In this document: in pieces, positions 5,311 to 45,385 of the stretch
How positions within the stretch are numbered: position 1 is the stretch's first letter
How the letters are laid out: each line of letters begins with the position of its first letter
Virus record (IMG/VR): IMGVR_UViG_649989924_000003
Reading direction: 5' to 3' (one strand)
From: a virus
Lineage: Duplodnaviria; Heunggongvirae; Uroviricota; Caudoviricetes
Length of the DNA stretch: 64,000 nucleotides
Position numbers and translations under genes: made by a program
Notes under the pieces: model-generated
Told to the model about the DNA's origin: nothing
Seen by the model: only the letters and a program-made list of their open reading frames with translations
Databases searched by the model: none

Positions 5311-5328
5311 GGCAATTAACTGCTGGAG
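5311..5328 (+). promoter_or_regulatory. 5' hairpin-GGAG leader of Ntn paralog A
   Basis: GGCA-ATTAAC-TGCT-GGAG, about 8 nt after a TG-TTAAAAT -10 box. Confidence 0.7.
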
Positions 5329-6054
5329 ATGAGAAAAGTGCAAATTTATATAAATCCAAATCATAGTAGAATAGAGTGTGAATGTGAAGAAAGGAAGAGA
5401 AACATGTCATTTCATTGTATATTCATGAAAGAAGATATAGCTTATTTAGGGGCAGATAGTAGAAAAAACTTTACAGATGGAAGTTATAGCGATAATCATC
5501 AGAAGATATTTATCAATCGTAATTTAAAGATGGTGTGGACTATGACAGGTATCACCGAATATAGAAATATAAATTATTTTTATATTGTTAATATGATACT
5601 CAATAATCCAAAAGCAAGCATGCTAAAAAAAGTATATACTATTCAGGATTTAATGAATCCAATTACTGAGAAGATGCATCAGGAAACACAAGAAGATTCA
5701 TATTTTGATTTGTTTATAACTACAGTAGAGAACGGTGAATTGGTAACTTATACAATAGAATCTAAGAATGGCCAAGCAGATGAAAAAACAAATAGAAGAC
5801 ATTGGGGTAATTATCTTGAGGCAAGTGGTGTACATACAGATATGAGATACAGAGTAAATGAAAGTGATTTAATTGAGTTATCAGAAATAGATATGACTCA
5901 AAAAGTAAATAATCTGATTTCAGATGTTATAGAAGCCAATAAGAAATGTAAGTCTAATACAGTGGGTGGAGATATATATGTTGCAACAATAGATAATAAA
6001 GGTAATATCTTCACTTATGTTAATGGGAGGAACTCTGATTTTAGAATTATGTGA
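5329..6054 (+). CDS. Proteasome-beta/HslV-like Ntn hydrolase, paralog A (upstream GTG 5338; core ATG 5404, Ser1)
   Basis: M-SFHC...LGADSR...QKI...MTG and C-terminal TVGGDIY, matching the Thr1/Asp17/Lys33/Gly47/SGG pattern. Confidence 0.7.
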   Translation: MRKVQIYINPNHSRIECECEERKRNMSFHCIFMKEDIAYLGADSRKNFTDGSYSDNHQKIFINRNLKMVWTMTGITEYRNINYFYIVNMILNNPKASMLKKVYTIQDLMNPITEKMHQETQEDSYFDLFITTVENGELVTYTIESKNGQADEKTNRRHWGNYLEASGVHTDMRYRVNESDLIELSEIDMTQKVNNLISDVIEANKKCKSNTVGGDIYVATIDNKGNIFTYVNGRNSDFRIM

Positions 6055-6073
6055 TATGATATAGTCATGTCAA

Positions 6074-6694
6074 ATGGCAATATATAAGAAAGAAGGGATA
6101 TTAGTGTTTAAAAGAAAATATATAATTTCTGATTATTTTTATGAAGGAGTAAACTATAAAGCAACTTCCTATGAAGAAATAGAAAGATACTATAAACAGT
6201 GGCAAGAGACTCTAAGTTCTCAAGAAATGAAAGCATTTGAGCATTATAGAAAGAAAATAAATACAAATAATAATATTAATGCTAAATTGAGATTAGGCCA
6301 AATACCTGAAGATAGTTTTATCCTGTCTAGTGCTTTAAGAAGAGCATCCTGCCCAGATAATATTCTTGTTTACAGATGCCTTAGTAGAAAGGAAAATAAG
6401 GATATGTCCAACAAAACAGTAGGACAATTATTTATGAGAAAAGATTACAAAGGAACACATGTCAAAGATATAGTTACAGGAGGTTTTCCTATAATAAATA
6501 GCGCTGGATATATGATAATACTGATGCCAAAAGGAGCAAAAGCGGCATATATCAATAATTTATCAAACAAATTTAAGAATGAGAGGGAAATGCTTATTGA
6601 TAAAGGACAGGTATTTATGCTTATAGAGAAAAATAATGATATATTTAATTTACCAACATATATAGTAAAATTACAGATAAATAAGTCAATATAG
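6074..6694 (+). CDS. VIP2/C3-like ADP-ribosyltransferase
   Basis: NINAKLR, ILVYRCL (catalytic Arg), PKGAKAAYI, NEREMLIDKG (ExE). Confidence 0.8.
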   Translation: MAIYKKEGILVFKRKYIISDYFYEGVNYKATSYEEIERYYKQWQETLSSQEMKAFEHYRKKINTNNNINAKLRLGQIPEDSFILSSALRRASCPDNILVYRCLSRKENKDMSNKTVGQLFMRKDYKGTHVKDIVTGGFPIINSAGYMIILMPKGAKAAYINNLSNKFKNEREMLIDKGQVFMLIEKNNDIFNLPTYIVKLQINKSI

Positions 6695-6862
6695 TTATGA
6701 ATATGAACATTAATAGTTGTAGATGTATTTTTAATATTCTAGGATATTTTTCCTTATACAACGTTGATTGTGGTATAGTAATAATCTTTTTTCATTTCTT
6801 ATGATATAATTTATGTTAAGTAAATAAAAGATAATTTATCAGATGAATTTAAGCAGAATTGC

Positions 6863-7498
6863 TTGGAGATGAAGAAAGGAGTGAATTATAACTGTCATAA
6901 GCTTGGTGGAGTCACTGCATTCGCTCTAACAGGCATATATACTTATCAGAATGGAATATTGGATACCTATTCGTATCATGTAGAAATCATCCCTCTCAAA
7001 TTCTCCTATCAATCCTACATCATCCCACTTTTTCTTCTTTTTATATTCTCTTATTATTCTTCTACACTTCCAGATATAGACCATCCCATATCACGTCTAG
7101 GGAAGAAGTACCCACATATATCCCAATATATGAATACTCAGTTTGGGCATAGGGGAGTTACCCACTATCCCATAACACTGCTAGGTTTAGGATGTATATT
7201 ATATTTGATTGGTCAAATAATGATTCAGCCATATAGAATTCTATGGATGTGGGGAAGTATTGGATTTGTTGTGGGATATGCCTCCCACATCCTCTTAGAT
7301 ACCCTTAATAGTTCTGGTATTGCATGGCTGATGCCTTTTTCAAAGGTTAGAGTGAAAATTCCCACAGGTATCAGGATAAAAAACAAAAAAGGGAAGAAAA
7401 GAGTCTGTTGGAGGTATCTTGAGGGGAATCGTACGCATGATAAGATGATTATTATCGTTATCTGTTGTCTTTTGATTTTCTTACTGACAAAAGGATAG
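6863..7498 (+). CDS. Membrane metal-dependent hydrolase (YdjM/DUF457-like)
   Basis: LPDIDHP, HRGVTH, GYASHILLDTLN motifs; several TM segments. Confidence 0.85.
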   Translation: MEMKKGVNYNCHKLGGVTAFALTGIYTYQNGILDTYSYHVEIIPLKFSYQSYIIPLFLLFIFSYYSSTLPDIDHPISRLGKKYPHISQYMNTQFGHRGVTHYPITLLGLGCILYLIGQIMIQPYRILWMWGSIGFVVGYASHILLDTLNSSGIAWLMPFSKVRVKIPTGIRIKNKKGKKRVCWRYLEGNRTHDKMIIIVICCLLIFLLTKG

Positions 7499-7525
7499 TA
7501 TCAGTTTCTCATGATTATGTTGTAG

Positions 7526-7592
7526 TATGATATAATGGAATCAGAAGAGAATATGGATGTTTAAAAGCATCCTTTTTTATTTTCTGGAGGTG
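7526..7592 (+). promoter_or_regulatory. Extended -10 promoter, then an intrinsic terminator, then the RBS, upstream of the adhesin/Tad operon
   Basis: TG-ATATAAT, GGATG-TTTAAAAG-CATCC-T6, GGAGGTG, ATG 7599. Confidence 0.6.
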
Positions 7593-43952: not shown

Positions 43953-44110
43953 AATTATTTCTCCAGCTTTTTGTGGAGCCCGCCTCCTTTTTTGTAAAAT
44001 AAAAAACTACACTAGAAATATAAAATCCTCCTATATATAGTTTTTCTCTTTTGATAGATTTTTCTAATTTTTTGGATAAACACTCATAATTCTTATGAAA
44101 ATAATACTTT

Positions 44111-44193
44111 CCTCCTTTTTTGTAAAACAAAAAATGGAACCCAAAAAAATATGAGTTCCATAATCGTTATAGTTTACTACTATATTATATCAT
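44111..44193 (-). promoter_or_regulatory. Promoter-ACGA-terminator leader, copy 9 (its RBS tail is repeated at about 43982-44005)
   Basis: TGATATAAT-16 nt-ACGAT-GGAACTC/GGGTTCC-T6G-AGGAGG. Confidence 0.75.
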
Positions 44194-44333
44194 AACTAAA
44201 GGATTTCGCGTTTTTACCAACTTATTAGCCAATTCATTTTTGCTAATTGAGTTATGTTGAAAAAAGTTGAATAAAGTCATATAATTATTTATATATACTC
44301 AATTAAAATAAGAGATTAAAGGGCAAATATAAA

Positions 44334-44714
44334 ATGGTATCAGTAACAAAGAGAATAAAAATGATTAAACAACCCTATGGAGGATATATCGGTCCTATAG
44401 TTTTGAAGGGTTTTACTTTTGAAAATGGTTATACTGATTATATTCATTCTGGCGATGGAGATTTCTTAACAGAAACAACTCTTTGGGATTTTAAAGTATC
44501 TATTCATCATCCAAGCAAAGACCATACACTTCAAATTCTGATTTATTATCTTATGGGAATACATTCAGATAACTCAATTTATTTTGAATCTATACAGAAT
44601 CTTGGAATTTATAATCCACGATTACAAAAAATTTACTTAATTAGTATAGCTGAAATACCAGAAACAATTCTTAAAGATGTTTGCGAAAGCGTTATTGGAT
44701 ACAATTTTCATTAA
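44334..44714 (+). CDS. PD-(D/E)xK-like hypothetical protein, possibly internally deleted
   Basis: GDGDFLTETTLWDFKVS. Confidence 0.45.
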   Translation: MVSVTKRIKMIKQPYGGYIGPIVLKGFTFENGYTDYIHSGDGDFLTETTLWDFKVSIHHPSKDHTLQILIYYLMGIHSDNSIYFESIQNLGIYNPRLQKIYLISIAEIPETILKDVCESVIGYNFH

Positions 44715-45360
44715 ATTTTGAATAATCCATCACTGCATACTGAACCTTTCCTCCAACTGCAAGATAGCCTTGAGAGTAAAGGTTTTTTTCTAGTTTTATT
44801 TCAGTTTCCACAGACTGAATCCCTTTCTCCAAGACTATATCAAGTGAATTAAACATATCTGAGCGAGTGAAACTATTTAAGCCATTTATCATATGCTCCT
44901 CTTCGCCAGAAGTGATAATATCCAATTCATTATCATTGTAAAATTCAATAGATGGAATCTTATGGTGAATGATATCTACTCTATACAATGTCTTTTTGTA
45001 GGCAACCATCAGGCGCATATCCTTGCATTCTCTATCACAGGTAATTTTGAGGAATTCAGAGTATTTTTTCACAATATCAGCAATATTTTTATCTGATACA
45101 GCCCTAAAATATTCCAATAATGTCCCATTAATATCCACCAATTCTTTCCCTACATATACCTGATTGATTCCTGTGATTCCAACGCATAAAACATTTGGTA
45201 TTAAACAGTGGATTTTTTTGTAATTGGAGTCTTTTAGGGTTCTATCAGGATATGTACTATATGAATCTGAAGCCATGACAATTCCATTCACATTCTTAAT
45301 AACAACCATATATGACATAAAGTTTCTTCTATCCCCTTTCTTGTTTGTCATTTCTAACAT
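44692..45360 (-). CDS. Ntn hydrolase paralog G (upstream ATG 45360; core ATG 45318, Ser1)
   Basis: M-SYMVVIK...MASDS...KKIH...ITG; AVGGKVQ; closest to paralog F. Confidence 0.75.
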   Translation of the reverse strand: MLEMTNKKGDRRNFMSYMVVIKNVNGIVMASDSYSTYPDRTLKDSNYKKIHCLIPNVLCVGITGINQVYVGKELVDINGTLLEYFRAVSDKNIADIVKKYSEFLKITCDRECKDMRLMVAYKKTLYRVDIIHHKIPSIEFYNDNELDIITSGEEEHMINGLNSFTRSDMFNSLDIVLEKGIQSVETEIKLEKNLYSQGYLAVGGKVQYAVMDYSKFNENCIQ

Positions 45361-45368
45361 ACAACACC

Positions 45369-45385
45369 CTCCAGCTGTATAAGCT
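45369..45385 (-). promoter_or_regulatory. 5' hairpin-GGAG leader of paralog G
   Basis: AGCT-TATAC-AGCT-GGAG after TG-ATATACT. Confidence 0.7.

Follow-up and report, generated by a model that had tools for sequence, protein, structure and literature searches.

We analyzed a 64,000-nucleotide stretch of DNA assigned to Caudoviricetes (IMG/VR virus record IMGVR_UViG_649989924_000003; hereafter the window) and found seven paralogous open reading frames (ORFs), predicted to encode divergent proteasome-like N-terminal nucleophile (Ntn) hydrolases, each of which carries two in-frame start codons downstream of a short hairpin. Ntn hydrolases function only with a free N-terminal nucleophile; bacterial proteasome homologues free it by removal of the initiator methionine and true proteasomes by autolysis of a propeptide. 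In the seven paralogs the second start codon directly precedes the Ser or Thr nucleophile, and initiation at both codons would give a short form suited to Met removal and a long form with a propeptide-like extension. Both start codons look selected when relatives are compared, and we rate the chance that each paralog is read from both of them as about even. The hairpin and its adjoining Shine-Dalgarno (SD) sequence are, by analogy with known Firmicute leaders, more likely a stabilizer and translation cassette than an isoform switch.

Seven paralogs with a hairpin leader and two in-frame start codons

A hairpin of 4-5 bp abuts GGAG in all seven paralogs (Table 1). The upstream start codon lies 7-9 nt beyond GGAG in six of them and 14 nt beyond it in one, and every pair of start codons is in frame and free of intervening stops, the second start being followed by a codon for Ser or Thr. 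These features had been claimed in the initial annotation, and its stems, its spacings and all 14 start coordinates proved to be right. The same was true of the -10 box that it had placed before six of the hairpins: six of the paralogs have a -10-like hexamer, in many cases TG-extended, whose end lies 6-9 nt ahead of the hairpin. Copy 3 lacks such a box because its leader sits inside the 3' end of copy 4.

Table 1. Coordinates of the leaders, the ORFs and the accompanying genes. Positions are those of the window, except for the gene on L128. The distance is that from GGAG to the upstream start (nt) for leaders and that from the upstream to the second start (codons) for ORFs.
Feature	Coordinates	Strand	Distance	Elements
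Copy 1 leader	5294..5340	+	9 nt	extended -10 TGTTAAAAT (5294-5302); hairpin GGCA-ATTAAC-TGCT (5311-5324); GGAG (5325-5328); GTG 5338
Copy 1 ORF	5338..6054	+	22 codons	long start GTG 5338; internal SD AAGGAAG; second start ATG 5404, then Ser1
Copy 2 leader	22291..22325	-	14 nt	hairpin AGCAG-TTGT-CTGCT (22325-22312); GGAG (22311-22308); ATG 22293
Copy 2 ORF	21538..22293	-	27 codons	internal SD GGAAGGA; second start GTG 22212, then Ser1
Copy 3 leader	23453..23481	-	8 nt	hairpin AGCAG-TCAA-CTGCT (23481-23468); GGAG (23467-23464); GTG 23455; inside the 3'-terminal codons of copy 4 (SSQLLEM); own -10 absent
Copy 3 ORF	22757..23455	-	16 codons	weakest internal SD among the seven; second start ATG 23407, then Ser1
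Copy 4 leader	24175..24204	-	9 nt	TATAAT, end 9 nt before hairpin; hairpin AGCAG-TCAA-CTGCT (24204-24191); GGAG (24190-24187); GTG 24177
Copy 4 ORF	23452..24177	-	17 codons	internal SD AGGAAGGA; second start ATG 24126, then Thr1; model of long form proteasome-like
Copy 5 leader	24934..24961	-	7 nt	TG-extended TATACT, end 6 nt before hairpin; hairpin AGTGA-TAAC-TCACT (24961-24948); GGAGG (24947-24943); TTG 24936
Copy 5 ORF	24244..24936	-	29 codons	internal SD AAAGGAA; second start ATG 24849, then Thr1
Copy 6 leader	35429..35458	-	9 nt	hairpin AGCAG-GACA-TTGCT, G.U closing pair (35458-35445); GGAGG (35444-35440); ATG 35431
Copy 6 ORF	34778..35431	-	11 codons	internal SD AAAGGAGA; second start ATG 35398, then Ser1; Pfam Proteasome 22.0 bits (cut-off 22.4)
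Copy 7 leader	45358..45385	-	8 nt	TG-extended TATACT, end 6 nt before hairpin; hairpin AGCT-TATAC-AGCT (45385-45373); GGAGGG (45372-45367); ATG 45360
Copy 7 ORF	44692..45360	-	14 codons	internal SD AAAGGGG; second start ATG 45318, then Ser1
Eighth leader copy with YdjM-family membrane hydrolase gene (non-Ntn)	6851..7498	+		hairpin AAGCA-GAAT-TGCTT (6851-6864); GGAG (6865-6868); GTG 6881
HTH_17 protein	22356-22712	-		inside the paralog array
YdjM gene with the same cassette, on L128	about 4564-5260	-		stem AGGC/GCCT

We propose that the transcript would begin within a few bases of a hairpin of 4-6 bp abutting a strong, extended SD, which reads GGAG-ATGA in the window and AGGGATGA or AAGGATGA in relatives. 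Ribosomes initiating at the upstream codon, 7-14 nt past this SD, would make a product with a poorly conserved extension of 11-29 residues. In this long form Ser/Thr1 would be internal, hence blocked, and the protein would either be cleaved between Met(-1) and Ser/Thr1, like proteasome beta propeptides, or be inactive. Initiation at the second SD and the ATG directly before Ser/Thr1 would yield a short product, from which deformylase and methionine aminopeptidase would strip the initiator Met and so free the nucleophile. HslV and Bacillus subtilis CodW expose their nucleophile by removal of the initiator Met. In this scheme the isoform switch would not be the 5' hairpin and SD, which would instead serve as a portable Firmicute-type cassette for mRNA stabilization and translation.

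The leader motif flanks copy 4 (23452-24225, minus strand), and SSQLLEM is encoded at both ends of the longest copy 4 ORF; the junction between copies 3 and 4 is a GTGA start/stop overlap. This bracketing suggests a tandem duplication or gene conversion that took in the leader.

The paralogs are predicted proteasome-like Ntn hydrolases

Pairwise identity among the seven ORFs is 14-27%. When aligned, all seven have Ser or Thr as the second residue of the short form, together with Asp/Glu17, Lys33, Gly47 and a VGG motif at the C-terminus. A model of the long form of copy 4 made with AlphaFold2 (AF2; predicted local distance difference test, pLDDT, 90.5; predicted template modeling score 0.88) has the Ntn alpha-beta-beta-alpha sandwich fold, and a Foldseek search with this model gave a probability of 1.0 to 20S beta subunits and Anbu at a template modeling score of about 0.5. 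In sequence searches the proteins were hardly recognized: the best PF00227 scores in Pfam were 22.0 and 18.8 bits, below the cut-off of 22.4, with no match for the other five copies, a profile search of the PDB gave an E-value of about 0.02, and none of the paralogs matched NCBIfam, the HslV equivalog included. Because the fold matches and the catalytic residues are conserved, the seven ORFs appear to encode divergent proteasome-like (proteasome-beta/HslV-like) Ntn hydrolases. No HslU-like partner was seen; the genes near the paralogs encode a KAP NTPase, an HTH protein and Fic.

Seven paralogs that look catalytically intact stand on one element (5329-45360), and seven is the subunit count of a proteasome ring. 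A hetero-oligomer of the seven is pure speculation.

The internal start codon and its Shine-Dalgarno sequence

A profile search for the family yielded 151 representatives, one per 50%-identity cluster, of which 136 had an alignable N-terminus; the nucleophile is Ser in 105 of these and Thr in 31. Thirty-six of the 136 start at the Met before Ser/Thr1 and 100 are extended, with a median extension of 27 aa. Residue -1 of the extended representatives is Met in 96, Ile in two, Leu in one and Val in one. At the DNA level the Leu codon is TTG and both Ile codons are ATA; Val is GTG in copy 2 and its ortholog, the Val representative (P0132) having been read as protein. The initial annotation had taken this GTG for the sign of a real start, but alone it counts for little, Met to Val being a one-step conservative change.

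Pairing between the anti-SD sequence and the 19 nt preceding the internal start averages -5.8 kcal/mol, compared to -2.0 kcal/mol at 237 background internal ATGs (p = 5e-13). When one gene per lineage was used, the mean SD energy was -6.6 versus -4.9 after synonymous recoding (Wilcoxon p = 5e-4). The SD tracts of the two ATA genes are among the weakest (-3.3 and -2.9), and the GTG and TTG genes retain theirs. In a hairpin-less branch (L132 and L133) AAGGAGGA or AGGAGG stands 7-8 nt before the internal ATG, with SD energies of -10 to -12 versus about -4 kcal/mol under recoding with the codon usage of each contig, and the extensions, 45-125 codons long, open at a classical SD-ATG. The same purine tract is untranslated in L130, where it is the sole SD of the gene.

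These observations also bear on the possibility, which we consider rather unlikely, that the upstream start alone is used and that the extension is an ordinary propeptide, removed between Met(-1) and Ser/Thr1 by the enzyme itself or by a neighboring subunit, with Met -1 as the P1 residue and the purine tract encoding a charged patch. Proteasome beta subunits provide the precedent (PMC8665760), yet known proteasome propeptides end in Gly(-1), not in Met. Every exception at position -1 is aliphatic, but with six Leu codons available a simple need for a hydrophobic P1 would hardly produce 96% Met. Amino-acid composition accounts for much of the SD-likeness, but the perfect AGGAGG built from AAG and GAG codons at 7-8 nt in L132 and L133 lies far beyond the recoded expectation, and in L130 the tract, as untranslated 5' leader, acts as an SD. 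In favor of this reading, the upstream SD and start are strong and keep their frame, and the two ATA lineages retain the catalytic residues, hence long-only genes do exist; it is nevertheless these ATA genes, checked at the DNA level, that have weak SDs, while the genes with GTG or TTG keep theirs.

The extensions in the higher-GC branch (L132, 265-2700; L133), of 45-125 residues, are rich in Pro, Phe, Tyr and Asn and of low complexity; they may form a real N-terminal domain and not a spacer. In the P0016 cluster (90% identity) annotated lengths include 238, 228 and 222 aa; in L068 these lengths correspond to starts at the upstream ATG, at another in-frame ATG that precedes the Met by six codons, and at the internal ATG, respectively. 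Gene callers and the Prokaryotic Genome Annotation Pipeline give conflicting starts for these genes.

The upstream start codon

A start codon at 7-14 nt past the SD, in frame and free of stops, was found in 26 of 27 unique leader contexts; conservation of the frame in homologs had been named beforehand in the initial annotation as a check on its reading. Because the extensions of leader-bearing genes range from 11 to 41 codons, the frame has been kept through many indels. Where orthologs could be compared, the indel within the extension is 3 nt, whereas loops and promoter spacers differ by 1, 2 or 4 nt. The identity of the upstream codon changes while its position does not: orthologs have TTG or ATG where the window has GTG. 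The peptide drifts fast: in copy 5, for example, identity is 75% in the extension versus 99% in the mature domain, and in four ungapped ortholog pairs 25 differing codons of the extension are nonsynonymous and 4 synonymous. The extension keeps its frame and not its sequence, in line with the contrast drawn in the initial annotation.

The hairpin leader

Leaders were gathered from metagenome contigs and comprise orthologous and paralogous copies from several elements. In 29 aligned leaders 95.9% of the stem cells are paired and all five pairs have changed on both sides, in 25 cells versus 6.8 in shuffles (0 of 500 shuffles). The compensatory changes that had been noted among the seven copies (AGCAG/CTGCT three times, AGCAG/TTGCT, AGTGA/TCACT, AGCT/AGCT and GGCA/TGCT) are thus borne out by a covariation test. 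Stem variants in the alignment include AGCAG/CTGCT, AGTAG/CTACT, AGTGA/TCACT and GGTGG/CCACC, and outside it GGTT/AACC (L131) and AGGC/GCCT (the YdjM gene of L128) were found. Seven cells of the alignment hold G.U pairs and the loop varies from 3 to 7 nt, which favors an RNA structure over a DNA operator.

We regard it as very improbable that the inverted repeat acts as DNA, be it as a repressor operator at +1 (for instance for the HTH_17 protein at 22356-22712) or as a recombination or duplication joint of the array. The repeat does overlap the predicted transcription start, but the G.T pairs disrupt a DNA dyad and preserve RNA pairing, and a loop of 3-7 nt would alter the spacing of half-sites. 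An HTH gene lies within the array, yet several stem variants occur within one element. The motif flanks copy 4, hence SSQLLEM at both ORF ends, but it is always joined to an SD and a start.

When the window was searched with a covariance model of the leaders, exactly eight sites in the 64 kb were significant, the seven paralogs and one YdjM gene (next match, E-value 0.07), all eight sites having belonged to the training set of the model. A -10 box is placed before the hairpin in 20 of 30 leaders, compared to a background of 7%, and it is TG-extended in 15 of the 30, compared to 0.6%. Judged solely from this placement, the 5' end of the transcript probably lies within a few bases of the hairpin. 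A generic sigma-70 scan (34 found, 27 expected) was uninformative in DNA of 29% GC. Folding of whole leaders gave no common structure past the 5' hairpin and unremarkable z-scores, and Rfam had no match at the gathering score, the one hit being a chance microRNA match (E-value 0.76). A binding site for CsrA was considered, as AAGGAUGAU after the stem in relatives resembles the CsrA consensus, but the GGA lies outside the loop and the candidate was dropped as unsupported. A simple regular-expression search of the fetched DNA detected no CsrA-like ORF.

Three states of the family and separation of leader and dual start

The dual-start arrangement is the majority state of the family. Next to it stand short-only genes (L066, L067, L130 and L131), which start at exactly the internal ATG, and long-only genes, namely the two ATA genes, which retain Thr/Ser1, Asp17, Lys33 and Gly. 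The retention of catalytic residues in these long-only relatives suggests that the long form can mature and need not stay dead, and the coexistence of short-only, dual and long-only states suggests that both maturation routes yield a working enzyme.

An eighth copy of the leader (6851-6883), overlooked in the initial annotation, precedes a gene for a YdjM-family membrane hydrolase, and a YdjM gene with the same cassette is present on L128. In both, the conserved N-terminus MNY(N/R)CH begins at the cassette's own start, which speaks for a genuine upstream start in the Ntn genes as well; a second start was not apparent in either YdjM gene, no dedicated test having been made. The Ntn and YdjM families may be co-regulated. 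In L131 the hairpin and SD are retained and the upstream frame is closed by two stops, which leaves at most a possible out-of-frame upstream ORF of 8 codons. Dual starts with perfect SDs are seen in L132 and L133, which lack the hairpin. The YdjM cassette, the closed frame of L131 and these hairpin-less dual starts weaken the suggestion of the initial annotation that the leader sets the ratio of the isoforms.

The same data are relevant to an unlikely alternative in which the internal start alone matters. The hairpin and SD, with or without a start codon, would then be a stabilizer that holds a ribosome near the 5' end, the upstream start would be kept in frame only to prevent ribosomes that load there from crossing the real ribosome-binding site in another frame, and the long form would be a tolerated by-product. 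A 5' stem-loop with a strong SD is the classic Firmicute stabilizer, as in aprE, cryIIIA and ermC (PMC3997798), and RNase J1 is blocked by initiating ribosomes (PMC5737220); stabilizers need no start codon (PMC3997798), however, and here an optimally spaced start is conserved even as the type of codon turns over. Extension peptides drift faster than the mature domain, in accord with this alternative, yet long extensions in frame, every one of them with a strong SD of its own, persist in hairpin-less branches too. Short-only relatives exist, but so do long-only genes, and while L131 combines hairpin and SD with a merely possible 8-codon out-of-frame upstream ORF, in no lineage does the cassette start sit directly at Ser/Thr1.

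A more far-reaching version of the dual-start proposal, which we hold to be doubtful, is a translational zymogen switch. It would pair a short protease activated by methionine aminopeptidase with a propeptide-blocked long form, which would either undergo later maturation or act on the ring by poisoning or capping it. The ratio would be tuned at the hairpin-SD by an RNA-binding factor or a 5' decay enzyme, and the seven paralogs would form a hetero-oligomeric, proteasome-like particle encoded by the plasmid or phage.

Several points weigh against the use of both starts or against a ratio set by the leader. Because leader and dual start occur apart, they are separable and the leader does not seem to be intrinsically the switch. 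The per-gene synonymous-recoding tests are individually non-significant (Fisher combined p = 0.14), and amino acids rich in K, E, R and G already account for most of the SD-likeness. The internal SD is weak in copy 3 and its orthologs (-1.2 to -5.0); across the family the internal ATG and its SD are conserved, in support of an SD for the second start. Met, Leu, Ile and Val at position -1 are also compatible with a hydrophobic P1 for cleavage. Since the lineages share ancestry, the in-frame counts are not wholly independent observations. The AF2 model, with a pLDDT of only 55-71 over the extension of copy 4, is silent on blocking of the active site. The anatomy of the sequences, the covariation, the conserved frame, the conserved internal ATG and SD and the fold are shown here; we infer the use of both starts, the transcription start and the processing of the long form. 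Dual initiation is comparatively well supported and unproven, the evidence being sequence-based throughout.

Gene content of the element and occurrence of relatives

The window has a GC content of 29% and a strong strand bias. Its genes include those for NrdD, thioredoxin, an ADP-ribosyltransferase, a VirB11/T2SSE-type ATPase, Toprim, NlpC/P60, Fic, NADAR, YopX, an integrase and a KAP NTPase. The gene for the anaerobic ribonucleotide reductase NrdD (1-2515, plus strand) is split over two ORFs, the first of which ends in a match to an intein-splicing domain. A KAP-family P-loop NTPase (24981-27011) leads a co-oriented array (21538-27011, minus strand) of paralogs 5, 4 and 3, the HTH_17 protein and paralog 2; L002 has the same succession of a KAP NTPase and three paralogs.

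Contigs of 115-200 kb in Coprobacillus cateniformis assemblies and gut metagenomes carry close homologues of the paralogs, and the element is treated here as a large plasmid or phage-like element of gut Firmicutes of the Erysipelotrichaceae type. A megablast search of window positions 20001-45000 against plasmid and phage collections gave zero matches, and a scan of IMG/VR proteins revealed no relatives. Sixty matches to a DNA pattern in IMG/VR were discarded as chance, none of them containing an Ntn gene. P0016 was absent from the GTDB genomes searched, and the family was matched in 2 of 401 GTDB genomes (a sample of one phylum); it is rare among the GTDB genomes searched. In L068 a paralog (16942-17761) is frameshifted in the assembly, and an intact call of 272 aa is present at the same place in L069 and L071.

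Two RNA runs hold small shares of the window, as contigs only. One metatranscriptome contig covers 24121-24271 and crosses the predicted promoter of copy 4; it may stem from read-through or DNA, and it does not inform on the starts.

Comparison with known systems

The window family probably lies in or near the Firmicute clusters FC1-FC5 and the phage-borne AAH/PPH proteins (Fuchs, Alva & Lupas, 2021; PMC8665760); these are likewise divergent, unannotated proteasome-like proteins of Firmicutes and mobile elements. Leaders or dual starts are not described in that paper (PMC8665760). A limited literature search found no published description of two-start proteasome-like genes, and as far as that search reached the arrangement is without precedent among enzymes of this class.

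Two in-frame starts, each with a ribosome-binding site and giving N-terminal isoforms, are known from lambda S105/S107, IF2 alpha/beta, ClpB, CheA and the internal starts detected by Ribo-RET (bioRxiv 10.1101/520783), and genes of the window family likewise have a pair of start codons in frame, both preceded by an SD at a workable distance. Unlike in those genes, the second start of the window family coincides with the catalytic N-terminus, and the predicted isoforms would therefore differ in the way the enzyme is activated, or in its being activated at all. A further difference is that the arrangement is family-wide, 100 of the 136 representatives being extended. If true, this would be a clear family-wide addition to the few functional in-frame dual starts in bacteria. 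The hairpin-SD type of stabilizer is known from Bacillus aprE, cryIIIA and hbs (PMC3997798, PMC5737220). Firmicute 5' stabilizers (aprE, cryIIIA STAB-SD, SP82 polypurine, hbs) have a 5'-proximal stem-loop and a strong SD; the window motif has a stem-loop predicted to lie near the 5' end and, like them, a strong SD and portability across unrelated genes, here Ntn and YdjM. The window motif differs by its covarying conservation across elements and its ever-present start codon. The motif is flagged as a conserved, covarying 5' RNA element absent from Rfam.

HslV/CodW, Anbu and BPH, which lack a propeptide, resemble the window family in the proteasome-like Ntn fold and in a Thr or Ser directly after the initiator Met. 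The short-only relatives L066, L067, L130 and L131 and the internal start would follow the same scheme of Met removal, and the difference is that most members of the window family also have an in-frame upstream start. With the beta propeptides of archaeal, actinobacterial and eukaryotic proteasomes the family shares a variable extension that ends exactly at Thr/Ser1 and paralogous subunits that are encoded together. In those propeptides residue -1 is Gly, whereas in the window family a start codon with an SD of its own puts Met there; none of the 100 extended representatives has Gly(-1), and 96 have Met. If true, one gene that keeps both the Met-removal and the propeptide route would link the two modes of activation in evolution, and the short-only, dual and long-only genes offer a ready-made series in which to ask why propeptides came about.

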